From the NCBI GenBank assembly GCA_963837465.1, contig CAWINB010000004.1, positions 724,393-788,392 on the forward strand: a stretch of 64,000 bases of DNA, in the 5' to 3' direction. Below the pieces are notes generated by a model. That model worked only from the letters and a program-made list of their open reading frames with translations, was not told the origin of the DNA and made no database searches. The position numbers and the translations under genes are program-made. Source of the stretch: Candidatus Doudnabacteria bacterium. GTDB lineage: Bacteria; Patescibacteriota; Doudnabacteria; UBA920. Shown here one piece after another: positions 753-51,207 of this stretch (position 1 is its first letter; each line of letters opens with the position of its first letter).

Positions 753-756
753 AATA

Positions 757-15769: not shown

Positions 15770-15845
15770 GCCGTTGTAGCTCAGTTGGTAGAGCAACTCC
15801 ATGGTAAGGAGTAGGTCATCGGTTCAATTCCGATCAACGGCTCCA
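15770..15845 (+). tRNA. tRNA-Thr (anticodon GGT)
   Basis: Cloverleaf as read: GCCGTTG/CAACGGC acceptor stem, anticodon loop ATGGTAA, T-loop TTCAATT, and an encoded CCA. Confidence 0.85.
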
Positions 15846-17330
15846 GTAACAAACATTTTCATTTTTTTCAAATTTTTTTAGAGATGCGCGAAGCGCATCG
15901 CTCGGTGGAATGGGGCGAAACTCAATTCTGCCATTATGCAGCAAGGGGTTCGAGCCGGAAATTTTCAATGCAATGGATTTTTTGGGGTGCAGTTCGGGCG
16001 AAAGCGTTATTTCGCCCAGTTTTTGTGCGTCTTTTATCCATTCCCGCATCGGTTCGAGCCAAGAAACAGACCCCCTGCGGAGATCGGTGATTTTCTCCTC
16101 CAGCGTCTTCTTATCCGAGAGCAGGCTTGCCTTCTCTCGAAGATATGACTCCCGGTCAATATCTTGGTCTAACAGGGCGGTAAGAAGGCGTTGGAGTTTT
16201 GCCTCAATAGCCAAAACTCGGCCTTTCATCTCTTGGCAGGCATTTGTGGATAACTGGCTATCCTGCTTAGCGTCCTGGTCCGCCATTTTTAAAAGTTCAG
16301 CTGCACCTTCCGGGGGCAGGACAAATTCTTTGAGAGTTTCGTTAAACAATCTGGCCAATGCTGCATCCCGGATGTATGACTGGGAACATTCAGTATTCTT
16401 TTTGGTACAGCGGTAATAGATATAATGATGAACTTTGCCGGAGACTTGCCGCTTGAGTTTGTTCTCGGCGGTAATGCTCCGACCGCACTCGCCGCACTTA
16501 AACAGCCCGCATAAGGGCTGCGACTCGTTCTTAGGCTTTTTATGAGGCCTACCACGGTCTTTAAGGACCGTTTGGACACGGTCAAACAACTTTTTGGTAA
16601 TTATGGCCTCGTGGTTACCTTGGTACAACTCACCGGCATACCAAAAATGACCGTAGTAAAAAGGGTTTGAGAGGATAACCGCCGACCGATCTCTGGGTAT
16701 GGTTTTTCCACCGGTTGTAAAAATTCCATGTTCAGCAAAAAAATTTGATATATCCTCCAAGCGGCTATCGCCTTGGGCGTAAAGTTCAAAAGCGGCCTTT
16801 ACGACTTTTGCTCGCTTGCGGTCAACGGTAACTTTTTTTATTCTGATGTCATTTAAATAGCCCAATGGGGCCAAGCATGGGTAGTCACCACGCCGGACTT
16901 TCTCGTAAAGTCCGCGTTTGGTGTTGGCGCTTAAGTCTAAAATAAACTGATTGGCCATACCGAGTTCAACCGCCATGACAAGAACATTGTCGGTAGGGTA
17001 ATAGCTTCGGTCGTGGGTTTGGACATGTTGAATCCTTCCCTTTTGGAGCATCCAGCTAATCTGGCCACCGTCAATCGGGTTACGGGCAAGGCGATCCAAC
17101 TTCCAGCAAATAATGCCCTGGGCTTCGCCCTGCTCAATCCGGGCTAGCATATCCGCAAACACCGGACGGCCGGGCTTCTGTGCGGATTGCTTTTCAACGA
17201 ACTCTTGGGCAATATGGAGGCCATCCTGGTTTGCTAATGCTCGCAATACAGCAAGCTGGTCATCAATAGACCGAACTTGCTTGTCTTCCACGTCAGTTGA
17301 TTTACGGGCGTAGAGAAAATAGTTTGACAT
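15834..17330 (-). CDS. large serine recombinase (resolvase catalytic domain + recombinase domain + zinc ribbon + coiled coil)
   Basis: YARKSTD...S..DQ catalytic region, a CxxC...CxxC zinc ribbon, and 498 aa in total. The last 4 codons overlap the tRNA-Thr 3' end. Confidence 0.85.
   Translation of the reverse strand: MSNYFLYARKSTDVEDKQVRSIDDQLAVLRALANQDGLHIAQEFVEKQSAQKPGRPVFADMLARIEQGEAQGIICWKLDRLARNPIDGGQISWMLQKGRIQHVQTHDRSYYPTDNVLVMAVELGMANQFILDLSANTKRGLYEKVRRGDYPCLAPLGYLNDIRIKKVTVDRKRAKVVKAAFELYAQGDSRLEDISNFFAEHGIFTTGGKTIPRDRSAVILSNPFYYGHFWYAGELYQGNHEAIITKKLFDRVQTVLKDRGRPHKKPKNESQPLCGLFKCGECGRSITAENKLKRQVSGKVHHYIYYRCTKKNTECSQSYIRDAALARLFNETLKEFVLPPEGAAELLKMADQDAKQDSQLSTNACQEMKGRVLAIEAKLQRLLTALLDQDIDRESYLREKASLLSDKKTLEEKITDLRRGSVSWLEPMREWIKDAQKLGEITLSPELHPKKSIALKISGSNPLLHNGRIEFRPIPPSDALRASLKKFEKNENVCYWSR
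15841..15987. repeat. IR-L: 147-bp segment (tRNA 3' end ctcca + recombinase 3' tail). Its inverted copy is at 19374-19520.
   Basis: Direct comparison of the reverse complement of 19374-19520 with 15841-15987 gives about 6 mismatches over 147 bp. Confidence 0.85.
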
Positions 17331-17418: not shown

Positions 17419-17625
17419 ATGGCAATTCAAAATAACATAGGCGCAAATATTAAAAAGTTAAGGACTATATCGGGGTTATCGCAAGAAGACTTTGCAAAAA
17501 AGTCTGGCGTTAAATATACAACCCTGACAAAGATTGAAAGTGGGGTTATAAAAACTCCCTCGGTTTTAATTATGGCAAAAATTGCAAAGGCTTTAGGTGT
17601 TACGATTGAAAATTTAATAAAATAA
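17419..17625 (+). CDS. XRE-family helix-turn-helix transcriptional regulator
   Basis: LRTISGLSQEDFAKKSGVKYTTLTKIESG. It is transcribed divergently from the recombinase. Confidence 0.8.
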   Translation: MAIQNNIGANIKKLRTISGLSQEDFAKKSGVKYTTLTKIESGVIKTPSVLIMAKIAKALGVTIENLIK

Positions 17626-17637
17626 ATTTGCCCTTTT

Positions 17638-18741
17638 ATGGTGGAAGCGCCTGCGAACAAACAAATATGGTCTAACTCAAATCTATCAGAGGTTTTGCCT
17701 GGTATTGTTTTGCCTTTGGTTTCCAGCACTGTCATTAAAGTTGTGACAGAAGGCTTTGGGACTATCTTTCCCCTCAAAGCACAAGAGGAGATTTTAAAAG
17801 ACTTTAAAGGGAGAATTTATTTTAACGCCACCTTGGTAGAAGATATATTAAAAAAATTATTGGATTTGCATAAAGTCAGCCTTGAACAGATTTTGGGTGG
17901 TGACCAATCGGAATTTGGATTCGGGCAATCCCTAAAGTTTCCAAATAAGATACGCCTCGGAGCTTTTGTTATTAAACAGCTTTTACTTTCTTTTTTCGCC
18001 CAAATATATATTAAAGTTAGGTTTATTTCTTTTCGTAAGCACATTGATAATTATCTGCAAAACATAAAACGGGCTAATACGACCGATGAATTAAACCGAC
18101 AGTTTAGGCATATATCTAACTTTATTAGCAGTTTAGTAAACCCTGCTTTTCAAGCATTATTTTATCCTATTGCATTGCATCTTTTATTTTTAGAACTTTG
18201 TAAAAAATGGCTCGGGGCAGGATTTAACGAGCAGGCGCAAAATTTGCTGGCGGACGGTAAAAGCGACATTGAATTAGTGCACGCAATGGGTATGCTATGG
18301 AACATAAAGGAAGGGATAAGCAAAGACCCAAAATTCAAGCAGGAGTTTTTGGTTTCTTCCAATGCCAATGAGGCTATAAGCGTTCTCCGAAAGAACCAAG
18401 GGGTATATAAAAATTACTGTGATTTTTTGAATAAATTTGGCCAGCGTTGCATTAAGGAAATGGACTTTTCTTTGCCCCGCTGGAATGAAGACCCAACTTT
18501 TATAATTACGCTTATAAAAAAATATATTGAAACTCCCGACGGACAAAGCCCCTTAAAAAATAAAATTTTATTGGAGCAAAAAAATCTGATAGCAGTCAAC
18601 CAAGCTCGTCAGAATTTGTCCTGGTGGAAATATCATCTCTTAATGTTTGTTTTAAAGAAGTCAACTAAAGGATTGAATTTGAGAGAAAGGTGCAAGTTGG
18701 AATCTGGCCACATATTCCAAGTGCTTAGGTCTTTTTTTTAA
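17638..18741 (+). CDS. PEP-utilising-enzyme-family protein fragment (central region; no N-terminal ATP-grasp domain)
   Basis: Weak similarity to the middle part of PEP synthase/rifampicin-phosphotransferase-type enzymes. It continues in the next ORF after an 11-bp gap. Confidence 0.35.
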   Translation: MVEAPANKQIWSNSNLSEVLPGIVLPLVSSTVIKVVTEGFGTIFPLKAQEEILKDFKGRIYFNATLVEDILKKLLDLHKVSLEQILGGDQSEFGFGQSLKFPNKIRLGAFVIKQLLLSFFAQIYIKVRFISFRKHIDNYLQNIKRANTTDELNRQFRHISNFISSLVNPAFQALFYPIALHLLFLELCKKWLGAGFNEQAQNLLADGKSDIELVHAMGMLWNIKEGISKDPKFKQEFLVSSNANEAISVLRKNQGVYKNYCDFLNKFGQRCIKEMDFSLPRWNEDPTFIITLIKKYIETPDGQSPLKNKILLEQKNLIAVNQARQNLSWWKYHLLMFVLKKSTKGLNLRERCKLESGHIFQVLRSFF

Positions 18742-18752
18742 AGCTGGGCGAA

Positions 18753-19319
18753 TTGTGGGATAAAGAAAATTTAATTATAGAACCATCTGACATTTTTTAT
18801 TTTACTGCCTCGGAGCTAAATGGTTTTTTACAAACAAATTCTTTGGGTAATAAAAACCTATTCAATATCGTGGCCGAACGTAAAGCCGAATACCAGCACT
18901 ATGCCAAAATTAGTATGCCCGACAGAATTTTTGGAAATGAATATGACGAGTTTGCAAGTATTAAGGATGTTGCTCAAAAAGACCAGAGCTTGCCAATACA
19001 GAAGGAGCTCAAGGGGGTCGGAATTAGCGGCGGAGTTGTTGTAGGAATTGCACGGGTTCTTATGTCAGAAAATCAAATCTCGGAGATTAAGCCTGGAGAA
19101 ATTTTGGTCACAGACCATACTGACCCTGGTTGGACTCCAGTCTTTGGGGTGATTAAAGGGCTGGTTACCAATGTTGGTGGTCGCTTGTCCCACGCTTCCA
19201 TAGTAGCGAGAGAATACGGACTGCCGGCTGTTATAAGCGTTCCGAATGCCACAAAGATTATTTCAACAGGGCAACATATTTCACTTGATGCTAATAATGG
19301 AACGGTTAAAATTTTATAG
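18753..19319 (+). CDS. PEP-utilising enzyme mobile (phosphohistidine) domain protein
   Basis: VTDHTDPGWTPVFGVIKGLVTNVGGRLSHASIVAREYGLPAVIS is the canonical swivelling His-domain motif. Confidence 0.65.
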   Translation: MWDKENLIIEPSDIFYFTASELNGFLQTNSLGNKNLFNIVAERKAEYQHYAKISMPDRIFGNEYDEFASIKDVAQKDQSLPIQKELKGVGISGGVVVGIARVLMSENQISEIKPGEILVTDHTDPGWTPVFGVIKGLVTNVGGRLSHASIVAREYGLPAVISVPNATKIISTGQHISLDANNGTVKIL

Positions 19320-19373
19320 AATTTTACACAGTAACAATATTTAATTATTTTCTCTGCGTTTGCGCCCTGCGTC

Positions 19374-19520
19374 TCCCCAAAAAATCCATTGCATTGAAAA
19401 TTTCCGGCTCGAACCCCTTGCTAAAAAATGGCAGGATTGAGTTTGACCCCATTCCACCGAGCGATGCGCTTCGCGCATCTCTAAAAAAATTTGAAAAAAA
19501 TGAAAATGTTTGTTACTGGA
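19374..19520. repeat. IR-R: inverted copy of the tRNA-end/recombinase-tail segment
   Basis: See IR-L. The plus strand here encodes ...PKKSIALKISGSNPLLKNGRIEFDPIPPSDALRASLKKFEKNENVCYW. Confidence 0.85.
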
Positions 19521-19545
19521 GAGAGCTGTATGACAAAGTCCGCAC

Positions 19546-19800
19546 CTATTTTATCAAAAACAGGTTCAATCCAAAGATTTTTTGTGCAGCCGATTTTTTG
19601 GGGTGCAGCTCTGCGCTTTGCGTGATTGCGCCCAGTTTTTCTGCGTCTTTTATGAAGTTTTTGACCGGTTCAATCCAAGTTCCCTGGCTCCGCTCCAAAC
19701 GGGCGACTTGCTCGGTCAAAGTCTTCTTTTCCAAGGTCAACTTGTTCTTCTCCTGCCGGTACTGTTCTGGCTCAATATCTTCGGCCAGATAGGGTAACAT
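19546..19800 (-). pseudogene. diverged 3' fragment of a second large serine recombinase gene, in the same orientation as rec1
   Basis: LTLEKKTLTEQVARLERSQGTWIEPVKNFIKDAEKLGAITQSAELHPKKS aligns with rec1 residues about 395-450. It ends prematurely. Confidence 0.6.
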
Positions 19801-19909: not shown

Positions 19910-20197
19910 ATGGCATTATCCTGGAATGAGATTAAAACCAGAGCGGTAGAGTTTTCCAAAGAGTGGGAAAATGAAACCAGTGAAGACGCCGAGGCCAAAA
20001 GTTTTTGGGACGGCTTTTTTAATGTCTTTGGCATGACCCGCAAACGTCTGGCCAGCTTTGAATTTGAAGTCAAAAAGCGCGGCGGCAACAGCGGCTTTAT
20101 AGATCTATTTTGGCCAGGCACTTTGATTGTTGAACATAAGTCCCGAGGCAAGAACTTAGAAAAGGCTTACGCTCGATTCCCAGCAGCATTTACCTGA
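19910..20197 (+). pseudogene. N-terminal fragment (95 aa) of an MmeI/PglX-type N6-adenine methyltransferase-restriction protein
   Basis: SWNEIKTRAVEFSKEWENETSEDAEAKSFWDGFFNVFG...IDLFWPGTLIVEHKSRGK is the conserved N-terminal domain of MmeI-like/BREX PglX proteins. The ORF stops after 95 aa. Confidence 0.6.
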
Positions 20198-20466
20198 AGA
20201 AAGCTTTGCCAGTGATTATTTATTAGGGCAATTGGCAGGCGTATCTGGAACTTTAAGCTCTGTAACGGCCTCAGGTTATGCAGAAGTAAAATATAGCAAA
20301 TCGGACTGGAGTCCTCCGCAAAATTTTATCTAAATATAGCCTATGACATATTAAAAACCCGCCGGGTTCGCGTGGTCTGTAAAGACTAGAGGCGCAGCGG
20401 GTGTTGATAGTTGAATTATACACTATTTTAACAAAAAGCAACACTGTGTGGATAAGTTAACATAAA

Positions 20467-20634
20467 ATGCTAGAAAATAAGGAAAAATACAATAAACCCC
20501 CATTATCTATTAAGGAACAGATAGAGCTTTTAAAGAGCCGCGGTTGGTTCAATACCTCGCGGCTTGCCGCGATATTGCAAAAAAACCCGGGCATTAATAC
20601 CCCGCTGCTTGCGGCGGGGAACCTTTATTTTTAA
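20467..20634 (+). pseudogene. N-terminal fragment (55 aa) of an Abi_2 (AbiD/AbiF-like) abortive-infection protein
   Basis: MLENKEKYNKPPLSIKEQIELLKSRGWF matches the Abi_2 N-terminus. Confidence 0.45.
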
Positions 20635-20755
20635 AAAGTTAGGCGAGCTTTCGGGGCGGAGTAGAAAATTAGAGGGGATTTATAGGCGGAAGCTGGAGCT
20701 TTTGGAGGAGCTGAAGAAATCGGTTTTGCAGAAGGCTTTTAGGGGAGAGCTGTAA
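20564..20755 (+). pseudogene. C-terminal remnant of a type I R-M specificity subunit (HsdS)
   Basis: Only the last approximately 22 aa (LELLEELKKSVLQKAFRGEL) are recognisable as the conserved HsdS C-terminal helix. Confidence 0.45.
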
Positions 20756-20767
20756 GTCATTAGTACT

Positions 20768-20809
20768 GGATCCCGGATATTTTTAACAGCCCTTAAAAAT
20801 TCCGGGATG
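20768..20809. repeat. family C palindromic element, inverted copy
   Basis: ggatcccggatatttttaacagcccttaaaaattccgggatg matches the reverse complement of 8641-8680. Confidence 0.65.
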
Positions 20810-20900
20810 ACAGCACTGGCCCAGGCTTTGGACAGGTTATTGCCAATGTGTCCAAAATTTAAGGTTTTTTGGACAAATGGGCCTTAATTTAAAGGGTTCT

Positions 20901-20940
20901 TTGACAAGATGTATACAAACTAGTATACTTTGTATACATC
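20901..20940 (+). promoter_or_regulatory. Fic promoter (ttgaca - 17 bp - tatact) embedded in a 33-bp palindrome gatgtatacaaa-ctagtatac-tttgtatacatc
   Basis: Seen directly. The arms are perfect 12-mers. This is the classic autoregulated promoter/operator arrangement. Confidence 0.6.
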
Positions 20941-20962
20941 TTTAAAAAGATAGATACAAAGT

Positions 20963-22108
20963 ATGAAGAAGCAAGAAATTGGTGTTTATATAAAACAGAC
21001 CGAAGGCTTTAAGGCTTTTGTCCCTTATCCTTTTCCACCAAACGGCGGCTTTGACTTTGGCCATGAGATATTAAAGAAAAATGACCAGGCAAGCAGGTTA
21101 CTGGGAAAACTGGATGGCATTACCAAGTTGTTGCCGGATTCAGACTTCTTTTTGCTTATGTATTTAAGAAAGGATGCCGCTTCTTCCAGCCAGATTGAAG
21201 GAACCAGGGCTACCATGATAAATGCCATAGAAGCGGAAGCTAAAGTAAGCGGCAACGTGCCCGCGGACGTAGACGACATTTTGCATTATATAAAAGCCCT
21301 AAACTACGGCATGAAACGGGTGGTTGCGGATGAGTTTCCTGTGTCACTTCGCTTTTTAAGAGAGCTGCATAAAAAACTCATGGACCAAGCCAGGGCAACT
21401 CATTTTTCCGACCCCGGAGAATTCCGCAAAACACAAAATTGGATTGGCGGGAATAAACCAGGCAACGCCAGTTTTGTCCCTCCGCCCGTTTCAGAAATGC
21501 ATCGCGCGTTAAATGACTTGGAAAAATTTATGCATTCGCGGGACGCCACCCTGACGCTAATTAAAGCCGCTCTGCTTCACGCGCAATTTGAAACTATCCA
21601 CCCGTTTTTGGACGGTAATGGCCGCACCGGAAGGATGCTGATAACTTTTTACTTGTGGAAAGAAGGTTTTCTGGAAAAACCCGTTTTGTTCTTGTCTTCC
21701 TACTTCAAAAAATTTCAACAGGTTTATTATCAAAAATTGTTTGGCTACCACCATGGTGAAGTTGAGTTTTGGGTTGATTTTTTTCTGGACGGAGTTATTG
21801 AAATTGCCAACGAAGCCATAGACATTGTAGGAAAAATTACCACTCTCAGAGAACAAGACATGCAAAAAATACAAAAGCTGGGAACTCGCGCCTCGGAAAG
21901 CGCTGCCTCTATTTTACCTAAATTGTACGGACAGCCAATTGTTAATAACGCGTTAGTACAAAAATGGACCGGCTTTACCCGGGCAGGCGCTCAAAGAGTG
22001 ATAGATAGATTTATTAAAATGCGGATTCTTTTGCCTAAAGACCAGGACATAAAATACGGGCAATCTTACGCTTATACAAAATATATTGCCATTTTTGGGA
22101 ATAAGTAG
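20963..22108 (+). CDS. Fic/DOC-family adenylyltransferase (Fic_N + Fic domains)
   Basis: The Fic motif HPFLDGNGRTGRML is present. Confidence 0.85.
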   Translation: MKKQEIGVYIKQTEGFKAFVPYPFPPNGGFDFGHEILKKNDQASRLLGKLDGITKLLPDSDFFLLMYLRKDAASSSQIEGTRATMINAIEAEAKVSGNVPADVDDILHYIKALNYGMKRVVADEFPVSLRFLRELHKKLMDQARATHFSDPGEFRKTQNWIGGNKPGNASFVPPPVSEMHRALNDLEKFMHSRDATLTLIKAALLHAQFETIHPFLDGNGRTGRMLITFYLWKEGFLEKPVLFLSSYFKKFQQVYYQKLFGYHHGEVEFWVDFFLDGVIEIANEAIDIVGKITTLREQDMQKIQKLGTRASESAASILPKLYGQPIVNNALVQKWTGFTRAGAQRVIDRFIKMRILLPKDQDIKYGQSYAYTKYIAIFGNK

Positions 22109-22115
22109 AATTACC

Positions 22116-22442
22116 ATGAACGAAGCCGAAACAAGAGCTGAATATGTTGACCCAAAACTAAAGGCGGGCGGCTGGGGCGAGACCGAAGGATCAAAAGTCC
22201 TGCGGGAATTTCGTATTACCGAAGGGCGTATCCAAGTCGGCGGGGAGCGCGCCAAACCGGAAATTGCCGATTATATTTTGGTTTATAAAAACCAAAAGCT
22301 CGCGGTTATCGAAGCAAAAAAAGAAGACCTTTTGCCAACCGAAGGCGTAGCCCAGGCCATAGCCAGAAATTGTTCCCAGCAGGAGAAGTTTTTAACCCGA
22401 TACTCGCCCCTGTACCTGGCAACACATTTATTGAATTTGTAA
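22116..22442 (+). pseudogene. N-terminal fragment (about 108 aa) of a type I/III restriction endonuclease R subunit
   Basis: MNEAETRAEYVDPKLKAGGWGE...ADYILVYKNQKLAVIEAKK is the conserved HsdR/Res N-terminal nuclease-domain start. The ORF terminates early. Confidence 0.55.
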
Positions 22443-22620
22443 CGAACTACTTGTTCCATAATCTGTGAAAAAACATACTTTCCTTGGTTCATAAAGATAA
22501 TCAAAGGTTAATTCCCTTAATTATCCCATAGCCCAAATTCAAATCGAAAAATATGTTTTTGTCAGATTACGGCTCAATTAAAATCATTTTAAACTTTTAT
22601 TAAAAATTAACCGGACACGA

Positions 22621-22875
22621 GTGATGCGACGGTATCAGTTTACACCAGAGCAAATAAGTCAATATTTTGCTTCAATGGATAGTATCTACACTCAAACCGG
22701 TTTGCCAAAGGTAACCGATTTTACGGAGGATTTTATTTGGGCAAAAAGCGTATGGTCAACAACCAGAATGCAGAGGTATCCAAAATTGCAACAGTGGCGG
22801 TATGATAAATTCAAAAGAATGACTGGTGAATATTTGAACGATAAGTCATTAATAAAAATGGCCTTAGAATTTTAA
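22621..22875 (+). CDS. hypothetical protein
   Basis: 84-aa ORF with no recognisable family. Confidence 0.3.
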   Translation: MMRRYQFTPEQISQYFASMDSIYTQTGLPKVTDFTEDFIWAKSVWSTTRMQRYPKLQQWRYDKFKRMTGEYLNDKSLIKMALEF

Positions 22876-22880
22876 TACTT

Positions 22881-22975
22881 TTTAATTTCTTTTTTGCCTC
22901 CGCGCCCCGCGCCCCCAAAAAATCCTTCGCACTGAAAATTTCCGCGTTGAACCCTTTGCTAAAAAGGGCTGTTGA
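22881..22975. repeat. third, degenerate copy of the recombinase-tail/att-like segment, in the same orientation as IR-R
   Basis: ccccaaaaaatccttcgcactgaaaatttccgcgttgaaccctttgctaaaaa aligns with 19371-19430. The upstream GC-rich run is also shared. Confidence 0.6.
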
Positions 22976-23039
22976 GTTATCCACTTGACGATTTATTTGA
23001 ATGTACGTTATTATGTACGTATCATTAATAATAAAATAT

Positions 23040-23237
23040 ATGCCAAAAATACAAAAGTTTCGGGTGGATATTTGGTTCAATGAGCTTCCCAATAAAATTA
23101 AACTGGGGAGCGTGCGTATTTACGCGGACACCGAGGATATAGCTTTGGGGCTTGCGCGCGCCCATACCGACTACCAGGTCAGCGGGGTGGATGAAACCAT
23201 CTGGCAGGTTAAGGAGCGACAGGTCGTTTACGCTTGA
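23040..23237 (+). CDS. small hypothetical protein, paralogue of 38192..38413
   Basis: Shared pattern F+VxIWF..P.KI.LG...EE.A..LARAHT.Y..SG.D..W...ER. Confidence 0.5.
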   Translation: MPKIQKFRVDIWFNELPNKIKLGSVRIYADTEDIALGLARAHTDYQVSGVDETIWQVKERQVVYA

Positions 23238-23359: not shown

Positions 23360-23722
23360 ATGAATTCCAAAACCACACTATCAATTTCCGAAGCCAGAAA
23401 AAGGATTTTTGAAATCGCGGAAGAAGTCCAAAGACCTGGCGTTTATTATACTTTAACCGATAAGGGCAGGCCCAAAGCGGTAATGGTATCTTTTGACGAA
23501 TACGAATCTTTAATGGAGACTATTGAAGTAACGGGGGAAATGCCTGAACTGGATAAAGATATTAAAGAAGCGCGCGAGGCTTACAAGAGCGGCGAATATA
23601 AAACCTGGACTACTTTGGAAGGTTTGTTAGCCAAGCAAGGTTTTGTTTTGGCGGAAAAAGCAAAAAAACAATATGGCGTTTCTTCTAAGGCTCAATCCAA
23701 ACGCAGAAAAACAATTAAATAA
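23360..23722 (+). CDS. Phd/YefM-family antitoxin
   Basis: N-terminal LSISEARKRIFEIAEEV...KAVMVSFDEYESLMETIE. Confidence 0.75.
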   Translation: MNSKTTLSISEARKRIFEIAEEVQRPGVYYTLTDKGRPKAVMVSFDEYESLMETIEVTGEMPELDKDIKEAREAYKSGEYKTWTTLEGLLAKQGFVLAEKAKKQYGVSSKAQSKRRKTIK

Positions 23723-23927
23723 AATTCCAAATCCTTACAAAGACCGGATTACTGTTACTTTATCCGTAATTGCTGGCAACCCTTGGTTGGGGAAGAAACT
23801 AAAAGGCAAATTTCAAGGTTCTTATTCAGTTAAGGTTTGGCCTTACCGGATTATTTATGATATTTACAAAAATGATTTACTGGTTTTGATAATCAAAATA
23901 AAGCATCGCGGCAATGCTTATGATTAA
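23673..23927 (+). CDS. RelE/ParE-family toxin
   Basis: YRIIYDIYKNDLLVLIIKIKHR C-terminal signature. It overlaps the antitoxin 3' end. Confidence 0.7.
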   Translation: MAFLLRLNPNAEKQLNKIPNPYKDRITVTLSVIAGNPWLGKKLKGKFQGSYSVKVWPYRIIYDIYKNDLLVLIIKIKHRGNAYD

Positions 23928-25814: not shown

Positions 25815-26238
25815 TATGCCGTTTATTTCTTTTTTAAAATTTTATAATGACCTGGGCCTGAAAGAGATGCGCAGTTTCGCCGTTCCCAGCGGCGCTTTTG
25901 GGGTGCCCATCGGAGAGTACGATCTATTGGAAAATTATTGCGATGAAAGGGGATGCGATTGCCGCAAAGTTATGGTAAATATCATCTCGGTAGAAAACGA
26001 CTCGGTGAAAATTTGGGCCACAATCCATTTTGGCTGGGAAAATCCGTCTTATTATCACGAATACTTTTCAAAAGACATTGCTATTGCCCAAAAAATGTCC
26101 GGTTCGTATCTGGAGCCGCTTGGCGAGCAATCCAAACACGCGCCGCGATTTTTGGGAATCTGGGCGCAAATAATACGAGACGAAAATTATGTGGAACGTT
26201 TGAAAAGACATTATAAACTGTTTAAGGAAAAAATTTAA
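25786..26238 (+). CDS. hypothetical protein
   Basis: 150-aa ORF (possible start MPFISFL at 25816) with no family. Confidence 0.35.
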   Translation: MKKWRENYFNMPFISFLKFYNDLGLKEMRSFAVPSGAFGVPIGEYDLLENYCDERGCDCRKVMVNIISVENDSVKIWATIHFGWENPSYYHEYFSKDIAIAQKMSGSYLEPLGEQSKHAPRFLGIWAQIIRDENYVERLKRHYKLFKEKI

Positions 26239-26522: not shown

Positions 26523-28064
26523 ATGGCTACAAAAACTAAAAATGGTACATCGGCAAACATAGGTTTTGAAGAAAAGCTTTGGGCCACAGCGGATAAAATG
26601 CGCAACAATATGGACCCGGCCGAATATAAGCACGTTATTCTGGGGCTTATATTTTTAAAGTATATTTCCGACTCTTTTGAAGAACTCTATCAAAAGTTAA
26701 AAACTGATTCTGAATCCGATCCGGAAGATAAAGACGAGTATTTGGCGGAAAACGTTTTTTGGGTGCCGCAGGAGGCACGCTGGAACTATTTACAGGATAA
26801 CGCCAAAAAGCCCGGTATCGGCACTTTGGTAGATGGGGCTATGGTCGCCATTGAAAAAGAAAACCCCACGCTTCGGGGCGTGCTGCCAAAAATTTACGCG
26901 CGCCCGGACCTGGACAAAACCAGGCTCGGTGAAATAATAGATTTAATGAGTTCCCTTGGCCTGGGGGATAACGAAAGTAAGGCTAAGGATTTGTTGGGCC
27001 GGGTATATGAATATTTCATCGGCCGCTTTGCCAGCGCCGAGGGTAAGGGTGGCGGAGAATTTTTTACTCCGCGGTCTGTTGTAAAATTACTGGTGGGAAT
27101 GATTGAGCCTTATAAAGGCAGAATTTATGATCCCTGCTGCGGCAGTGGTGGTATGTTTGTGCAGAGCGAGAAATTTGTGGAAGCGAACGACGGCCGCAAA
27201 GGGGATATTGCGGTGTACGGACAGGAGTTAAATCCTACTACCTGGCGCTTGTGTAAAATGAACCTGGCTATTCGCGGTATAGAAGGAAATATCGGGTCGC
27301 AGCATGCCGATTCGTTCCATAATGACCAGCACAAAGACTTAAAAGCGGATTTTATCTTGGCCAATCCGCCATTTAATATCAGCGATTGGGGAGGGGAGCG
27401 CTTGCGCGATGATGTCCGCTGGCAATACGGCGTGCCGCCAACCGGTAACGCCAACTATGCCTGGATTCAGCATATGGTTTACCATCTTGCTCCAACCGGT
27501 ATAGCCGGTTTTGTTATGGCTAATGGCAGTCTTTCTTCCAATACTTCCGGCGAAGGTGAAATTAGAAAAAATTTAATAGAAAAAGGTTTGGTCGATTGTA
27601 TTGTAGCCATGCCCAGCCAACTTTTTTATACCACACAAATTCCGGCCTGTTTGTGGTTTGTGTCCCGCGACCGTTACGATCACAAATTCCGCAACCGCCA
27701 CGACGAAATACTGTTTATAGACGCCCGTAAAATGGGCGCTATGGTTAGCCGCAAAAACCGCGAATTTGCCGCGGAAGATTTAAACAAAATCACCGGTACC
27801 TACCACAACTGGCGCAACGTCAACGGTAAATACCAGGACGTAAAAGGCTTCTGCAAAGCCGCCAAAATTACGGAAGTGGAAAAAGCCGGCTTCGTCCTAA
27901 CCCCCGGCCGCTATGTTGGCTCGGAAATTGTGGAAGAAGACGATGAAGTCTTTGGAGAAAAAATGAAGCGATTGACCACGGAACTATCAAGCCAATTTAA
28001 GGAATCTAAAGAGCTGGAAGAAAGAATAAAGAAAAATTTGGATTCAATAGGGTTTAAAATATAA
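26523..28064 (+). CDS. hsdM: type I restriction-modification system methyltransferase subunit
   Basis: HsdM N-terminal domain, the motif [13 protein letters not shown], and the FxGxG AdoMet region. Confidence 0.9.
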
Positions 28065-28071
28065 ATAGCAT

Positions 28072-28713
28072 ATGTTGATATTTATTGACGAATCCGGGGA
28101 TCCTGGGTTAAAACTTGGTGAAGGTTCAAGTAAATATTTTACTGTGGCTTTAGTAGTGTTTGAGGAAAATGATGAAGCGCTTGCTTGCGACCAAAAGATT
28201 GAATTGTTCAAGCGAGAATTGGGATGGAAGCCAAAAAGCGAATTTCATTTTAAAAATAACTCAGACAGAGTCCGCAAAGGCTTTTTGCAGGCAGTCGCGC
28301 CGTACAATTTTTTTTATTATGGAATTGTTTTAAACAAAGACCCTAAAAAGTTATGGGGCGAAGGATTTAAGGACAAGCAATCCTTTTACAAATACGCTTG
28401 CGGCCTGGTTTTTGAAAATGCAAAACCCAAACTTACAGAAGCAACAGTTATTATTGATGCCAGCGGCAGTTTGGATTTTAAAAATCAGCTGACTAAATAC
28501 CTGCGCCGCAAATTTAATGAGCAAGGAAATTCAGGTTCTAAAATAATCAAAAATGTAAAGATGCAACGCTCGGAAAGTAATAATTTATTGCAGCTGGCGG
28601 ATTATATTGCAGGCGTAATTAACCGCTCAATCAATAACACTAAAAAATACTCCGGCGATTACAGAAAGCTTATAGCTCACAGGGAGATAAGGGTACAAAT
28701 TTGGCCAAATTAA
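28072..28713 (+). CDS. DUF3800-family protein embedded between hsdM and hsdS
   Basis: N-terminal IFIDESGD and C-terminal LLQLADYIAG signatures. It starts 8 bp after the hsdM stop. Confidence 0.6.
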   Translation: MLIFIDESGDPGLKLGEGSSKYFTVALVVFEENDEALACDQKIELFKRELGWKPKSEFHFKNNSDRVRKGFLQAVAPYNFFYYGIVLNKDPKKLWGEGFKDKQSFYKYACGLVFENAKPKLTEATVIIDASGSLDFKNQLTKYLRRKFNEQGNSGSKIIKNVKMQRSESNNLLQLADYIAGVINRSINNTKKYSGDYRKLIAHREIRVQIWPN

Positions 28714-28886
28714 AACTTCCGACCCTATCCCTTGCGGGAACGCGGCGATAAACGCCACAGTTCAGATCGGAAGCGATTCCATTGTTATTATATCTGACTA
28801 TTAACCTTTGTCAAGAACTGTTAAGACTTGTTAAGCAATTATTCCCTTAATAACAAAAAAAGCCTATAATTAAGGCACTATAATTA

Positions 28887-28914
28887 CCGCAAAATGCCTA
28901 AAGGCATTTTGCGG
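28887..28914. promoter_or_regulatory. perfect 12-bp-stem hairpin ccgcaaaatgcc-taaa-ggcattttgcgg in the hsdM-DUF3800 / downstream-operon spacer
   Basis: Seen directly. It is preceded by tataat-like boxes (cctataattaagg, cactataatta). Confidence 0.45.
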
Positions 28915-28927
28915 TCAAAAACCAGTT

Positions 28928-29257
28928 TTGTCAAACAAGTTTATGAAAAAAGGCTCAAAAAAAGAACTGGAAATTAGCGCGAAAGATCTAAAAACCATTT
29001 TTGGCAAAGACTATAAAAAATTCCAGACAAAAATACTCACCAACTGTTTTTGTATGAACTGCGCAGATAAAAAAGCAAACGCAACAATAATAAACTATAA
29101 AATAATCCTCAACCCCCTAAACGACCTAACCCTCCTCGGCTCCTGCAAAACCTGCGGCTCCAGAATTAACCGATATGTGGAGACTGGGGAAGTGAAGGGG
29201 TATGCGGGAAGGATTAAAAAAATAAGAAAAACATATGACGACTCTGGAAAAAATTAA
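28928..29257 (+). CDS. hypothetical zinc-ribbon protein
   Basis: Contains CFCMNC...CKTCG. It is translationally coupled to downstream ORFs. Confidence 0.4.
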   Translation: MSNKFMKKGSKKELEISAKDLKTIFGKDYKKFQTKILTNCFCMNCADKKANATIINYKIILNPLNDLTLLGSCKTCGSRINRYVETGEVKGYAGRIKKIRKTYDDSGKN

Positions 29258-29552
29258 TCTATGGCAGGCCATATTTACCGGTGTGGCAGTTTTGGTTGCC
29301 GGTGTTGCAACTTATTTGGCTTATAAAATTGGCAAAAAACAGAATAAAATAAATGAGATTGCTTTAAGTATTACCAATTTTGTAGAAATATTTTTGATGC
29401 CGCAACAGGTAATTCTAGAAAATGAACTTAAAGAAAGAATTATCAAATGGAGCATTCTTAATAAAAAATGTCAGCTCTTATCCAATATACTTAAACGAAT
29501 ACAGTCTCAACGGGCTGAAAAATCACGTGGGGAGCAGTGCGATACCAAATGA
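29235..29552 (+). CDS. hypothetical single-TM protein
   Basis: TM helix AIFTGVAVLVAGVATYLAY. Its 3' part overlaps the next ORF in another frame (possible frameshift or overlap). Confidence 0.3.
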   Translation: MTTLEKINLWQAIFTGVAVLVAGVATYLAYKIGKKQNKINEIALSITNFVEIFLMPQQVILENELKERIIKWSILNKKCQLLSNILKRIQSQRAEKSRGEQCDTK

Positions 29553-29724
29553 TTTAGACAGTTGGTATACGGTCCCAATCCCCGAAGATGTACAAACTAA
29601 AGGCGAATTTTCTTTGATCGTTGAATTTGAAGACTACTTGGGTAAAAAATACAAGGCGGAAGGTTTTGGAATTTTTAGAGGCACAGGCTGGGAAATAAAA
29701 TCCAAAAAGAGAATTGAAATATGA
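29422..29724 (+). CDS. hypothetical protein
   Basis: 100 aa, ending 3 bp into hsdS. Confidence 0.3.
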   Translation: MNLKKELSNGAFLIKNVSSYPIYLNEYSLNGLKNHVGSSAIPNDLDSWYTVPIPEDVQTKGEFSLIVEFEDYLGKKYKAEGFGIFRGTGWEIKSKKRIEI

Positions 29725-30980
29725 AACAAATCACTACAAAATTCAAACAAACCGAAATCGGCCTTGTTCCGGAAGAATGGGATGTTTTAAAGGTGTCTGA
29801 TGTTGCAGTGGTGGATGAAGAAGTTATTTCAAAAAATGATAATTTTAGCGAAATTCAGTACTTGGACGTTGCGGCAACAGATCAAGGACAGGTACTAGAA
29901 GTTCAAAAACTAAATCTAGCAGATGCTCCAAGTCGTGCCAAAAGAAAAGTCAAAGACAATGACATTTTAATATCCACAGTAAGGCCAAATTTAAAACATT
30001 ATACTTTTATTAAAAAAGCGCCAAATAATCTAGTGGCTTCTACTGGTTATGCGGTAATAAGTTCAAAAAAAGCAGATCCAAGATATTTATATTACGCTTT
30101 AACAACAGAAGAATTTACAGAATTTCTTGGAAGAATTGCGGATAGCCATACTTCGACTTATCCAGCAATTAATCCAGATGTGATCGAAAACGCTTTAATA
30201 GCAGTACCATCAATAACCGAACAAAAACAAATCGCGGAGATTCTTTGTTCTTTGGACGACAAAATAGAACTGAACCGCAGAATGAATAAAACTTTAGAAG
30301 CAATCGGACAGGCAATTTTTAAACGGTGGTTTGTGGATTTTGAATTCCCAAACGAACAAAGCAAACCTTACAAATCGTCGGGTGGGGAAATGGTAGAAAG
30401 CGAATTGGGTGAAATTCCGAAAAATTGGAATGTTGGAAAGCTAAGTGATATTGCTAATATAATTATGGGCCAATCGCCAAAATCTAAATATTATAATAGC
30501 AATAAAGAAGGTTTGCCGTTTTATCAAGGCGCAACGGATTTTGGAGATCGTTTTCCTACTGAGCGTGTCTATTGCATAAAAAATAGCAGGGTTGCAGAAG
30601 AAAATGATATATTGATGAGTGTTCGCGCTCCTGTAGGGAGAATTAATGTTGCAAACGGCAAACTATCCTTAGGAAGAGGAGTTTGCGCAATGCGCAGCAA
30701 AATTGGAAGTCAGTCACATTTATTGTATTTATTAAAAGTGTTTTTCCATACAGAAGATATTATAGGCGATGGCTCAGTTTTTGCTTCTGTAGCGCGCGAT
30801 GAGCTTTCAAAAATACCGGTTATAGTACCCCCACAAGAGATTGTTAATTTATTTGAAAGAATTACCGGGCAGACGGATAGACAATATGAACTACTAGCAA
30901 AAGAGAATACTAACTTATCCCAAATCCGAGACTCGCTTTTGCCTCGGTTGATGAGTGGAAAAATTAGAGTAATTATATGA
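29721..30980 (+). CDS. hsdS: type I restriction-modification system specificity subunit (two target-recognition domains)
   Basis: Duplicated TRD architecture with conserved spacer helices and a C-terminal ...LPRLMSGKIRV. Confidence 0.85.
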   Translation: MKQITTKFKQTEIGLVPEEWDVLKVSDVAVVDEEVISKNDNFSEIQYLDVAATDQGQVLEVQKLNLADAPSRAKRKVKDNDILISTVRPNLKHYTFIKKAPNNLVASTGYAVISSKKADPRYLYYALTTEEFTEFLGRIADSHTSTYPAINPDVIENALIAVPSITEQKQIAEILCSLDDKIELNRRMNKTLEAIGQAIFKRWFVDFEFPNEQSKPYKSSGGEMVESELGEIPKNWNVGKLSDIANIIMGQSPKSKYYNSNKEGLPFYQGATDFGDRFPTERVYCIKNSRVAEENDILMSVRAPVGRINVANGKLSLGRGVCAMRSKIGSQSHLLYLLKVFFHTEDIIGDGSVFASVARDELSKIPVIVPPQEIVNLFERITGQTDRQYELLAKENTNLSQIRDSLLPRLMSGKIRVII

Positions 30981-31732
30981 TTAGACTTGTTGTGAATTTA
31001 ACATTTTTAGAAAAAATTAAATCTGGGGATTTTCTGACTTTTTTTGCGGTTGTCCTCGCATATCTTGCTTATTCAAAATCAATAAATGATAAATATGAAT
31101 CTTGGCGGTCATTGCTTTTATCTCTCAAGGCTGATTTAGAAAGCCAATCTGCATGGCTGTCTTCTGAATATAAAGAAGAAACTTATAAAGATAAGACTGC
31201 TTTTTCTCCTAGAAAAATTATTTTCCCCCTCTCGTTTAAATCGTTAGAAGAAATAATAAGTCGTGGCGCTAGCGATTTTAATTTTTCGGAAAAATTTATA
31301 AAAAATATTTCAATTTTTGATGAAAGAATAGAAACATTTAACAAGCTCCTTGAACAGCAGAGGCTGAATGTAACTGCAAATCCTGTATTAACACATAATT
31401 TGGTAGAAATTTTGGATTCAAATGGGGCTTGTGATTGCGCCACAACTTATGATAATTTTTTTCAATCTATTGAGAATATGAAGGTTTCTCAGCCGGATTG
31501 TTATGCTTTAGCCAAAAGAATACACTCAATTAATAGGATTATACATATCAACATCATATCAAACGAGGACGACGAAAGCGGCCTGCACTATCTATACAAA
31601 TATTTGTTAAATGAAGTACAAAATAAGCTTTCTAATCTAGAAAAATCTAAGCCGTGGCATTTAAGGTATAAATGGCCGCTATTGATTCTTGGATGCGTTT
31701 TGTTTATTCTTATTGAATCGTTACTAAAATAA
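30977..31732 (+). CDS. hypothetical membrane protein (TM helices at both ends) embedded between hsdS and hsdR
   Basis: 251 aa. It overlaps the hsdS stop by 4 bp and ends 4 bp before hsdR. Confidence 0.45.
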   Translation: MIRLVVNLTFLEKIKSGDFLTFFAVVLAYLAYSKSINDKYESWRSLLLSLKADLESQSAWLSSEYKEETYKDKTAFSPRKIIFPLSFKSLEEIISRGASDFNFSEKFIKNISIFDERIETFNKLLEQQRLNVTANPVLTHNLVEILDSNGACDCATTYDNFFQSIENMKVSQPDCYALAKRIHSINRIIHINIISNEDDESGLHYLYKYLLNEVQNKLSNLEKSKPWHLRYKWPLLILGCVLFILIESLLK

Positions 31733-31735
31733 TAT

Positions 31736-34700
31736 ATGTCAACTTACAAATATACCGAATCAGATTTTGAAGAAGCAACATTGGAATGGCTCCAAGAGCT
31801 TGGTTTTAATATTGCTTTTGGGCCGGATTTAGCGCCGGAGGGGGAGAGTGCGGAGAGGGAAAGTTATGGGGATGTGGTTTTGGTGGGGAGGCTTAGGGCG
31901 GCTGTTGAACGGATTAATCCTGGGGTGCCGGAAGCGGCTAGGAATGATGCTGTGGAGAAGGTTTTGGGTTTGCCCTGGATGAAGCCGAACTTGATGGGGG
32001 TGAATGAGATTTTCCATAAATGGTTGGCGGAAGGGGTGGATGTTACGGTAAAGGAGAAGGATGGTTTTGTGCGGGGAGATAAAGTTTATTTAATAGATGA
32101 GAAAAATTTAAAGAATAACGACTGGTTAGCGGTTAACCAGTTTACGGTTATAGAAAATAACAATAATCGGCGCCCGGATGTTGTGGCTTTTGTGAATGGG
32201 TTGCCGCTGGCAGTTTTTGAGTTAAAAAATCCGGCTAATCCGAATGCTCCAATTGGGGATGCTTTTAACCAGATTCAGACTTACAAAAAAGAAATTCCAT
32301 CTTTATTTGCTTATAACGAACTGTGCGTAATTAGCGACGGAGTGGAAGCTAAGCTCGGCAGCTTTGGCGCGGATTTGGATAGGTTTATGAAGTGGCGGAC
32401 AATAAACGGCGGAGACGTAGAGCCAAAGTCGCGGCCGGAAATGGAAGTTTTGCTTCGCGGGGTGTTTGAAAAACAAAGATTTTTGGATATCGTTAAAAAC
32501 TTTATAGTTTTTGAGGCAACGGAAAAAGAAACCATAAAAAAACTGGCAGCTTACCACCAGTATTATGCCGTGAACAAGGCCCTGCAAAAAACCGTGGAAG
32601 CTACAGCCGAAAATGGCGACAGGCGTTGCGGTGTGGTTTGGCACACACAAGGGTCGGGGAAAAGCTTGAGTATGGTATTTTATGCCGGAAAAGTTATTCA
32701 GACTTTAAACAATCCAACTATAGTTGTGCTAACTGACAGGAATGACTTAGACGGCCAATTGTTTGATGTGTTCGGCAAGTGCAAAGAGCTGCTGCGTCAA
32801 ACCCCGGTGCAGGCGGAAAGCAGGGCGAATTTAAAGGACTTGTTAAAAGTCGCTTCCGGGGGCGTAGTGTTTACAACTATCCAGAAATTTTTTCCGGATA
32901 ACAACGCGCAACAACATCCATTACTTTCTGACAGAAAAAACATTGTAGTAATCGCGGACGAAGCGCACAGAAGCCAGTACGACTTCATAGACGGCTTTGC
33001 CCGGCATACGCGCGACGCTTTGCCCAATGCCAGCTTTATTGGCTTTACCGGCACGCCCATTGAACACACCGACGCCAATACCCGCGCCGTGTTTGGTGAA
33101 TATATAGACATTTACGATATTGCCCGCGCGGTGGAAGACCATGCCACCGTGCCAATTTACTACGAGGCCCGTTTGGCCAAAATAGATTTACCGCCATCGG
33201 AAAAGCCAAAAATAGACAGCGAGTTTGAAGAAATAACCGAAGGCGAAGAAACAGAAAAGGTAGAAAAACTAAAAAGCAAATGGGCGCGGTTTGAAGCTAT
33301 GATTGGCGCGGAAAAAAGAATTCAGCTGATAGCCAAAGACATTGTAGAGCATTTTGAAAACCGTTTGGGAGTTATAGACGGCAAGGGAATGGTTGTTGCC
33401 ATGAGCAGGCGGATTGCTGTTGAGCTGTACGAAGAAATCATCAAACTAAGGCCTCAGTGGGCAACTGCCGACGACCAAACCGGCTTTTTAAAAGTAGTTA
33501 TAACCGGTTCCGCGGCGGACCCGGCAAACTTTCAGCCGCATATTCGCGCCAAACCCGAGCGGGAAAAAATGGGCGACAGAATGCGCGACCCAAAAAACGA
33601 ATTAAAATTGGTAATTGTGCGCGATATGTGGCTAACGGGTTTTGACGTGCCCAGCATGCACACCATGTACATAGACAAACCTATGAAAGGCCACGGCCTT
33701 ATGCAGGCCATTGCCCGAGTCAACAGAATTTACAAAGACAAACAAGGCGGCTTGGTAGTGGATTATTTAGGAATTGCCCAGCAGCTTAAAGAAGCAATGG
33801 CAGATTATACCGACAGCGAGCGCGAAGCGCCAACTATACCGCAGGAAGAAGCGGTAAGTATACTGCTGGAAAAGTATGAAGTCATAAAAGGCTTATTCCA
33901 CGGCTTTGATTACTCCAAATATTTTACCGGCACTAAAGCCAGTCAAAACCAGGTTATGGTTGCGGCGGTGGATTTTATCTTAAAGCCGCAAGATGGCAAA
34001 AAAAGATTTCTGCAGTCCGCGCGGGAACTGTCTTTTGCTTTTTCGCTTTCCGTTCCAAATGATCAGGCTTTAAAAATTCGCGACCAGGTTGCTTTTTTCC
34101 AGGCCGTACGCGGCTATTTGATTAAACTGGAAAGCGGCGGCGGTCTCGGCGGCCCCACGCGGCACGATTACGACATGGCCATTAAACAAATAGTGGCCAA
34201 TGCCATAACCTCCACCGAAGTTATAGACGTTTTTACCGTGGCCGGTTTAAAACGTCCGGACATTTCTATCTTATCCGACGAATTTTTGGAAGAAGTAAAA
34301 AATCTCGAACACAAAAATTTGGCTTTGGAACTTTTAAAGAAACTCCTCAACAACGAAATTCTAACTTTGCAGAAAAAGCATTTGGTAAAATCACGCCTAT
34401 TTTCCCAAATGCTGGAGGAAACATTAAGGAAATATCAAAACCAAACTATAGAATCCGCGCAGGTTATTGCCGAACTCATTGAGCTGGCCAAAAAAATTCG
34501 TGCCGACCAGAACAGGGGAGTGGATTTAAAGCTTTCCGATGACGAAGTTGCTTTTTATGACGCCCTGGCTGATAATGAAAGCGCGCAGGAATTAGGGGAC
34601 GAAACCCTAAAACAAATTGCCCGGGAGCTGGTCCAATTATTGCGGAAAAATACCACCATAGACTGGACGCTTAAAGAAAGCATTCAGGCAAAGCTTAGGG

Positions 34701-34873
34701 TGATGGTCAAAAAACTTTTACGCAAATACCAATATCCTCCAGACAAGCAGGAAAGCGCTGCGAAGTTGGTTTTGGAACAAGCGGAAATTTTATGCAAAGA
34801 TTGGGACGGAGAAGAATTGCCAAAATACAGCTATCATTTTGTGAAAGAAGAAAGAGCTCTTTATAACTCATAA
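31736..34873 (+). CDS. hsdR: type I restriction enzyme R subunit
   Basis: SF2 helicase motifs ([23 protein letters not shown]), an N-terminal nuclease domain, and 1045 aa in total. Confidence 0.9.
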
Positions 34874-51203: not shown

Positions 51204-51207
51204 TCAT

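Follow-up and report, generated by a model that had tools for sequence, protein, structure and literature searches.

The 64,000-nt stretch of DNA analysed here (the window) contains a genomic island that extends from a tRNA-Thr gene to about 35 kb and has a GC content of 41-43%, as opposed to 46% in its flanks. Among named organisms, the ribosomal protein S2 of the host comes closest to that of Candidatus Doudnabacteria, and the host is a CPR bacterium. A complete type I restriction-modification operon (hsdM, hsdS, hsdR; 26523-34873) lies at the end of the island, with a DUF3800 gene (28072-28713) between hsdM and hsdS. Next to the tRNA lies a compact unit, unit A, in which a recombinase gene, a regulator gene and cargo are enclosed by an inverted repeat of the recombinase tail. 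Farther out lie a fragment of a second recombinase gene, decayed cargo genes, an intact defence gene and a truncated third copy of the repeat (copy 3). The features are listed below.

15770-15845, + strand: tRNA-Thr(GGT), putative integration target and B' half of attB (ARAGORN; Rfam tRNA at 15770-15842, 71.6 bits)
15834-17330, - strand: recA, intact gene for a predicted large serine recombinase of 498 aa (Pfam Resolvase, Recombinase, Zn_ribbon_recom)
15841-15987, - strand: proximal arm IR-L, the last 49 codons of recA and putative P half of the arm-tRNA junction, attL type (tail model, E=1.5e-41)
17419-17625, + strand: HTH_XRE regulator gene, divergent from recA, a conserved backbone gene (Pfam HTH_3, E=3.7e-16)
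17638-19319, + strand: unit A cargo, a PEP-utilising-enzyme mobile-domain gene present as two ORFs (PF00391, E=1e-24 on the second ORF)
19332-19374, + strand: non-coding sequence leading into the unit A distal arm (alignable to 22873-22912 and to the distal arm of L033, a metagenome locus, but to no recombinase coding sequence)
19375-19521, + strand: distal arm IR-R, a copy of the recombinase tail without the gene body (147-nt repeat; tail model, E=3.5e-42)
19522-19565, + strand: Y motif, putative P' half-site (Y model matches 19524-19564, E=1.5e-5)
19546-19800, - strand: recB fragment, remnant of a second recombinase gene comprising its 84 C-terminal codons (tblastn at 19555-19791; tail model, E=2.7e-6)
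19910-20197, + strand: N-terminal fragment of an MmeI-type gene, decayed cargo (PF20464, E=1e-18, profile positions 2-78 of 181 only)
20963-22108, + strand: SoFic/Fic defence gene, intact, apparently surviving cargo of an older unit (Pfam Fic and Fic_N; PADLOC SoFic, E=2.5e-106, full length)
22086-22442, + strand: N-terminal fragment of a type I HsdR gene, decayed cargo (PF04313, E=9e-7, partial match)
22873-22912, + strand: lead-in of copy 3 (aligns with 19332-19374 and with the L033 distal arm)
22913-22978, + strand: body of copy 3, corresponding to the inner 66 nt of a distal arm, i.e. the module and 17 nt (alignments, tail profile)

The product of recA has a resolvase catalytic domain with the serine nucleophile (PF00239, E=7e-20, residues 5-149), and S11 in the motif ARKST is invariant across 35 homologues. 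The Recombinase domain (PF07508, E=8e-12) and a zinc ribbon (PF13408, E=5e-9) both lie C-terminal to the catalytic domain. Large serine recombinases have a coiled-coil motif, inserted in the zinc-ribbon domain, by which directionality is controlled; in recA, residues ~340-440 are helix-like as judged by eye. Classified by this domain content, recA appears to be an ordinary large serine recombinase (serine integrase). It has more than 5,600 homologues, the best of which is 76% identical. The ORF converges on tRNA-Thr and continues through the proximal arm into the 3' end of the tRNA gene. The two arms (15841-15987 and 19375-19521) form an inverted repeat of 147 nt with 96% identity, and the final 5 nt of the tRNA (CTCCA) fall within it. 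An exact 57-nt core of the repeat occurs at two places only, 15931-15987 on the minus strand and 19375-19431 on the plus strand. The cargo ORFs of unit A (17638-18741 and 18753-19319; 367 and 188 aa, 11 nt apart) are directed towards the distal arm. This cargo gene may be split or frameshifted, and PADLOC gave no match to it. The sequence TGGAG is common to the arm-tRNA and arm-Y junctions. A CCGCACC word begins at +19 in Y, and the T-loop word of the tRNA begins at +14. By these sequence features, IR-R and Y together (19375-19565) look like an apparently intact internal attP.

A tRNA island built by a tyrosine integrase would encode a tyrosine recombinase and have the 3' segment of the tRNA directly repeated at its far end. 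Here, the 27-nt 3' end of tRNA-Thr occurs once in the window with up to 3 mismatches allowed, and no Phage_integrase domain was found in the 17 Pfam-scanned ORFs of 15.8-35 kb, which include all the long ones. A host-Y junction was not found in the window, and a search for an inverted Y at the far end of the island gave no significant match.

Copy 3 was first recognized as a truncated repeat in the same orientation as IR-R. Alignment and a profile match both bear out this placement and orientation, at 22873-22978. The similarity also stands, but it is longer than originally predicted, ~106 nt instead of ~70 bp. In a gapped local alignment, 22873-22978 and 19332-19443 share 87 identities over 106/112 nt (77.7%), whereas the prediction was to be given up at <65% over <40 bp. 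The alignment covers the GC-rich lead-in (22873-22912), which is thus present in IR-R as had been claimed. Its score is 90, and 500 shuffles gave a mean of 19.3 (sd 2.5) and a maximum of 34; under a second scoring scheme the values were 52 and 9.0±1.3. Without gaps, 22874-22965 is 73% identical to 19336-19427, and the core at 22913-22960 is 85% complementary to 15940-15987. A family tail profile, built from recombinase tails of unrelated loci, matches 22913-22978 with E=5.9e-10. The search for a fourth copy gave one weak match at 26081-26110, which is not significant (E=0.09). The in-frame translation of copy 3 is PKKSFALKISALNPLLKRAVEL, in a fuller reading ...APRAPKKSFALKISALNPLLKRAVELST*, and its peptide PKKSFALKISALNPLLK is of the recA type and not of the recB type. 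Downstream of copy 3, a good promoter match (22985-23014) starts ~10 nt past its end, and a Phd/YefM-ParE toxin-antitoxin pair (23360-23927) is located ~400 nt away, with a 78-aa ORF (23001-23237) in between.

The recB fragment directly follows the Y motif of unit A. Its arm (19548-19603) is cut after the module, following ...KIFGLNLFL. It is 66-71% identical to the homologues P0015, P0094 and P0241 and only 53% identical to recA; the P0094/P0241 sequence reads AAQKIFGSNLFLKNQ, and the tail of the P0015/P0094/P0241 lineage reads ...AAQKIFGSNLFLKNQKIEF. P0015 and P0094 appear to be encoded elsewhere in the source genome, outside the window, and this genome therefore probably contains more units. 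Between recB and copy 3 (19910-22875), every ORF is on the plus strand and points towards copy 3, including the MmeI and HsdR fragments, SoFic and an 84-aa ORF. A tblastn search of 19.5-23.4 kb with intact HsdR found nothing.

The architecture of unit A was compared with that of related loci, 12 of them from genomes, 80 from metagenomes and a few more collected by exact look-up. An inverted, gene-less copy of the tail is present upstream in 54 of the 77 loci that contain the recombinase C-terminus, and in 27 of the 32 where at least 3 kb of upstream sequence exists. The arms have a median length of 144.5 nt and 92% identity, and 23 are at least 95% identical (the arm of L013, for example, is 144 nt long and 100% identical, and one listing of such loci has ~35 cases). 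The gene-less arm lies 1.7-9 kb upstream, past the HTH gene and the defence cargo. Between the arms, a divergent HTH_XRE gene (65-83 aa) always precedes the recombinase gene, and beyond it comes variable cargo directed towards the gene-less arm; the same small HTH gene is found beside the recombinase in more than 15 loci. The inverted repeat is the standard architecture of the whole element family and no accident of the island in this window. The cargo is largely defence-related and includes SoFic, Shedu SduA, OLD/AriA-like ATPases, Mrr, HNH, DUF3800, MTase+ResIII and reverse transcriptase. DUF3800-like genes recur as cargo, identified by Pfam DUF3800 in L020 and by the same N-terminal sequence in L040 and L082. 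In L003, a reverse-transcriptase-like cargo gene (200-900, minus strand) with the motif ...LSLELHPKKIYLQDFHNGVSFLGA... is followed by the gene-less arm. A second 'LHPKK' match in L003 was considered as a recombinase stump and rejected, as it belongs to the reverse-transcriptase motif.

The recombinases of the family share the C-terminal motif PKKSxAxKI(F/S)GSN(L/P)xLKN, and the family has more than 5,600 matches. Many homologue ORFs extend into GIEPA, RIELA or LPLY, which are translations of reverse-complemented tRNA genes, and the family therefore habitually adjoins tRNA 3' ends. A scan of a viral contig collection found no relatives, and no phage, replication or transfer genes were present among the proteins scanned. 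Rfam found no known RNA family in the arms, Y or W. Full-text literature searches found no description of the family, which is weak evidence of novelty because their coverage is incomplete. The element family is widespread in ultra-small (CPR) bacteria and apparently undescribed. Many family recombinases are located at contig ends. Two contigs, L092 and L093, are perfectly palindromic, with identical inverted repeats flanking the recombinase segment to both ends (1421 and 896 nt). These palindromes are probably assembly artefacts that reflect how the assembler handled a segment with inverted-repeat flanks.

The outer ends of the arms are informative about the mode of integration. In 31 loci, representing 10 isotypes, the recombinase-side arm runs into the reverse complement of a tRNA, and in 7 it runs into Y. 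At the gene-less arm, the adjoining sequence is almost always Y. In six loci (L072, L078, L079, L081, L039 and L062), a second, inverted Y is found 2.5-7 kb farther out. The segments enclosed in this manner (Q segments) have inverted Y-W repeats at their two ends (99-257 nt, 83-100% identity), and the outer ends of these repeats coincide exactly with the junctions. In L072, a 4-nt core, GGCT, is common to the arm-Y, arm-tRNA and host-Y junctions. Because it is shared by all three junction types, GGCT reads as an attP/attL/attR signature of a serine integrase that would cross over in the discriminator-CC(A) end of the tRNA. The core shared by junctions is only 3-5 nt long. A TCGAAC-like word starts at +13/14 in the tRNA, in the T-loop, and at +17-19 in the Y motif that belongs to that locus; this applies to 21 loci as well as to the window. 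Measured from the junction, the word thus lies 4-5 nt farther out in Y. In serine integrases, the motif of the zinc-ribbon domain (ZD) is shifted outward from the centre by 5 bp in attP relative to attB (PMC3783163). As the offset fits this rule, Y appears to behave like a half-site of the P type, and the T-arm of the tRNA like one of the B type. Comparison of the junctions thus suggests that arm-Y corresponds to attP, arm-tRNA to attL and host-Y to attR. A short common core without a long target duplication, together with a P-type motif that lies farther out, is what a set of serine-integrase attachment sites displays. Two loci deviate from the usual layout. L069 has a simple form with one attP, in which Y, the recombinase and an arm-tRNA junction are present and the distal arm is absent. 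L088 is the opposite isomer: its gene-less arm, with a conserved lead-in, abuts the tRNA end, and the recombinase is 7.6 kb away and points outward. Another reading of Y, as a reverse-complement copy of the tail segment that follows the module, was dropped; the Y model has no such matches inside the arms.

Within the arms, two elements stand out. One is a palindrome of 8-9 bp with a 3-nt spacer, present in both arms (15881-15901 and 19461-19481; columns 88-108 of alignment A2) and embedded in the 'ALRAxR' codons. Across 45 loci, 85% of its cells are paired and 7 of 9 pairs have changed on both sides, with a covariation score of 0.379 versus 0.109 for shuffles and at most 0.086 for slid controls. 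The palindrome may serve as an operator or accessory site, or it may form an RNA hairpin. A role as terminator of the tRNA was rejected, as the T-runs lie on the wrong side of GATGCGC-TTC-GCGCATC in both directions. The other element is a 48-nt module (15940-15987, 19375-19422 and 22913-22960), the best-conserved part of the arm, in which synonymous codons are nearly fixed family-wide (AAA AAA ... AAA ATC TTC GGC TCG AAC). Lysine is encoded by AAA in the module and mostly by AAG upstream of it, and the module consensus holds a tandem CTCCAAAAAATC. The unusual fixation of synonymous sites suggests that the module is under DNA- or RNA-level constraint besides coding constraint. Outside the arm, most distal arms of other lineages are preceded by a conserved motif, CGCGCACGGG..GGG.GGGGCAAGTGTTATA (L013 395-420, L003 170-205, L088 1165-1200 and many others), which from its sequence looks like an outward-facing extended -10 promoter. 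The lead-in of the lineage in the window differs and reads TTCTCTGCG..TGCGCCCTGCGTC.

In the orientation of the recombinase, a unit consists of the gene-less tail copy with its lead-in, then cargo and the HTH gene pointing towards it, and then the recombinase gene pointing the other way into its own tail, so that the tails form an outward-facing inverted repeat of ~150 nt. The outer end of the recombinase-side arm, joined to the last nucleotides of the tRNA, would be an attL-type junction made by a large serine recombinase, and the outer end of the gene-less arm with Y would be an uncut attP. In the most economical model, the free element would be a circle in which two inverted attP sites separate a segment S (recombinase, HTH and cargo) from segment Q, which would hold more cargo, such as MTase+ResIII, helicases and methyltransferases. 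Integration through one attP into the tRNA 3' end would give the order host, Y-Q-Y, arm-S-arm, tRNA. Newer units would enter the same tRNA and displace older ones outward, where decay would follow, although this order of events is itself deduced. We can only infer the two-attP free form, since no circular contig is present among the 95 loci and no empty attB was found. The distribution of isomers counts against the model. The recombinase-side arm is at the tRNA in 31 loci as opposed to one clear case for the gene-less arm, an inequality that two equivalent attP sites would not predict. The arm is also ~3 times as long as a normal attP half. We propose only tentatively, at somewhat less than even odds, a hitherto undescribed class of integrative defence cassette of CPR bacteria in which the large serine recombinase (LSR) targets the CCA end of almost any tRNA, two inverted, extended attP sites (~150 + 100-250 nt) overlap the 3' end of the integrase gene, a live internal attP is always kept, and the halves flip or integrate in either permutation.

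Within this family, copy 3 is probably what decay has left of the cargo-side (distal) arm of an integrative cassette that was older than unit A and related to it. Two observations favour its reading as a distal arm, namely the homology of its lead-in to that of IR-R and the upstream plus-strand genes, which point at copy 3 like family cargo. The original prediction described it as a copy of the recombinase tail, and the first 66 nt of the tail arm are indeed present. They are preceded by ~40 nt of non-coding lead-in, and copy 3 is thus no plain recombinase pseudogene. It is unlikely, for the same reason, to be a proximal arm, the 3' end of a recombinase gene itself that an upstream deletion left as a stump, as recB is. 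Such an origin would account for the family C-terminal motif PKKSFALKISALNPLLK encoded in frame and for the fact that the recB arm is cut at almost the same point. Copy 3, however, resembles recombinase genes only from the PKKS codons onward. The preceding 40 nt correspond to the non-coding lead-in of IR-R and of the L033 distal arm, not to the coding sequence before PKKS in recA or recB, and the upstream ORFs head towards copy 3 as cargo does. A proximal-arm stump should also be preceded, on its own strand, by the body of a recombinase gene, and tblastn found none. An old local duplication of IR-R is another possible origin of copy 3, which would then represent no separate arrival.

The original prediction called the segment att-like, and this part has to be withdrawn. 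In this family the crossover core lies at the outer end of the arm, where the arm meets the tRNA or Y, and copy 3 is without that end. It lacks the outer 80 nt of a 148-nt arm and, with them, the palindrome, the TGGAG crossover core and the Y motif. A functional attachment site has a crossover core with a half-site on each side, an arrangement that copy 3 does not show. Having lost these 80 nt, it would be unable to serve as a recombination site. The conservation of the module, with its fixed synonymous sites, gives some reason to ask if copy 3 is still used, either as a secondary recombination or inversion partner of IR-L or IR-R or as a regulatory module that binds protein or RNA, since 85% of the module is preserved in it. 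We consider continued function improbable. In addition to the missing parts, the family-invariant base G33 is altered, small indels are present just after the module, and the adjoining cargo genes are fragments. Copy 3 is therefore better described as a fossil than as a working site.

It could also be asked if the units are integrative cassettes at all. An IS-like transposon with terminal inverted repeats of 150 nt, inserted between the tRNA end and a pre-existing Y, would leave copy 3 as a surviving end, and the smallest units (1.7-2.5 kb), with little beyond the recombinase and HTH genes between perfect inverted repeats, do look like insertion sequences. Such a transposon has little to recommend it, however, when the junctions are considered. 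Y and W are conserved over different tRNAs and hosts and also occur, inverted, at the far end of Q, where they are joined to the host flank. L069 has Y, the recombinase and a tRNA junction without a distal arm. The half-site offset agrees with attP and attB, and no target duplication was seen. Lastly, the segment is short and A-rich, but chance or low-complexity similarity is already refuted for practical purposes by a score ~28 sd above shuffles, a profile E-value of 6e-10 and homology that reaches into the GC-rich lead-in.

The island thus appears to record more than one arrival. Repeated integration of related elements at tRNA-Thr had been suggested from the repeats, and this suggestion is supported by the intact recA unit, a recB fragment of another lineage and a copy 3 of recA type. 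Recombinase-mediated rearrangement within the island, the alternative suggested with it, may also have taken place. On these sequence relationships, at least three units would have arrived at this tRNA: unit A, which is intact, a second unit of which recB would be the stump, and a third, recA-like unit of which copy 3 would be the stump. Copy 3 as the partner arm of recB was considered and rejected, as recB belongs to the P0094/P0241 lineage and copy 3 to the recA lineage. The identity of copy 3 to the unit A arms is 85%, and its identity to recB is ~68% of the first 47 module positions by hand count, 73% over 41 nt and 74.6% over 55/59 nt. For the unit behind copy 3, the window yielded no partner recombinase, Y motif or far-end host-Y junction. 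In L062, L024 and L010, too, two or three family recombinases are stacked at one tRNA. To our knowledge, recombination of attP with attL is not carried out by canonical serine integrases. The arrival of another unit at a tRNA that is already occupied would therefore call for heterologous specificity or a different route.

Elsewhere in the window, the gene of another large serine recombinase, more distant in sequence, converges on tRNA-Tyr (48938-49024), and its ORF overlaps the tRNA 3' end. On the minus strand the gene is split in two (ORFs at 49525-50475 and at 49010-49525), with 41% identity to recA across residues 18-338. No inverted copy of its tail of at least 40 nt was found in 48-64 kb. 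Directly upstream, an IS200-like Y1 transposase gene (50489-51160, minus strand) is bracketed by a 41-nt inverted repeat (50458-50498 and 51164-51204), and the locus at 50458-51204 is probably an IS200/IS605-type insertion.

Copy 3 alone is a minor relic. It would nevertheless date three or more arrivals, one after the other, at a single tRNA of an 868-kb genome. In CPR/Patescibacteria, defence genes (SoFic, Shedu, OLD/AriA-like ATPases and restriction-modification) appear to be gained and lost to a major extent through this family. The conserved T-arm and CCA end of tRNAs, used as a target by serine integrases, would be a near-universal landing site. The design appears to combine two inverted attP regions with a covarying palindrome. 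Integrases specific for tRNA ends and having well-defined attP/attB pairs could serve genome engineering.

The closest known enzymes are the large serine integrases of phages and ICEs, such as those of phiC31, Bxb1, Listeria A118/LI and SPbeta (SprA). They have the same three domains and an attP beside the integrase gene, and they are also alike in the short core common to the att sites and in a P-type outer motif located 4-5 bp farther out. Unlike them, the family targets the extreme 3' end (discriminator-CC(A)) of many tRNA genes, its attP extends over the final codons of the integrase gene, a second, inverted copy of the attP region is present so that there are two arms of ~150 nt, and phage, replication and transfer genes are absent from the family proteins scanned. 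In its junction logic the family follows the serine integrases, and it is in these four properties that it departs from them.

The SCC elements of staphylococci have short direct repeats at rlmH and often paired CcrA/CcrB recombinases. The family differs from SCCmec in its tRNA target, its one recombinase and its arms, which are inverted copies of the recombinase gene tail. The two are alike in the use of large serine recombinases, insertion at the 3' end of one conserved gene, tandem stacking and carriage of anti-phage defence genes (compare PMC11470126 on staphylococcal SCCmec/ccr). Tycheposons and other tRNA islands, which mostly have tyrosine integrases, also use tRNA hotspots where small cargo islands accumulate and decay (bioRxiv 10.1101/2020.12.28.424599). 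In these islands the tRNA is regenerated by a direct repeat of its 3' part, whereas in the family the tRNA 3' segment is unrepeated, the core is 3-5 nt and the recombinase is a serine recombinase.

In the Hin/Gin/Pin segments and in the FLP/FRT system of the yeast 2-micron plasmid, the recombinase gene lies between inverted repeats that bear the recombination sites, the repeat overlaps the coding sequence and two isomers are possible. The family resembles Hin/Gin and 2-micron in that its recombinase segment lies between inverted repeats and the opposite isomer is found in L088. The Hin-type systems, however, rely on small serine invertases with a C-terminal HTH, on 26-bp sites and on an enhancer, and have both orientations of the segment in one population, whereas FLP belongs to the tyrosine recombinases. 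The window departs from a serine invertase in its 498-aa LSR and 147-nt arms, and another locus, L088, is the only one in which the opposite isomer was seen. We know of no recombination between two attP sites by canonical serine integrases. If the two-attP cassette class is real, it would allow defence genes to be acquired, stacked and shuffled in a modular way in genomes of less than 1 Mb; it would then be a loose analogue of the yeast 2-micron plasmid, and copy 3 a fossil of that turnover.
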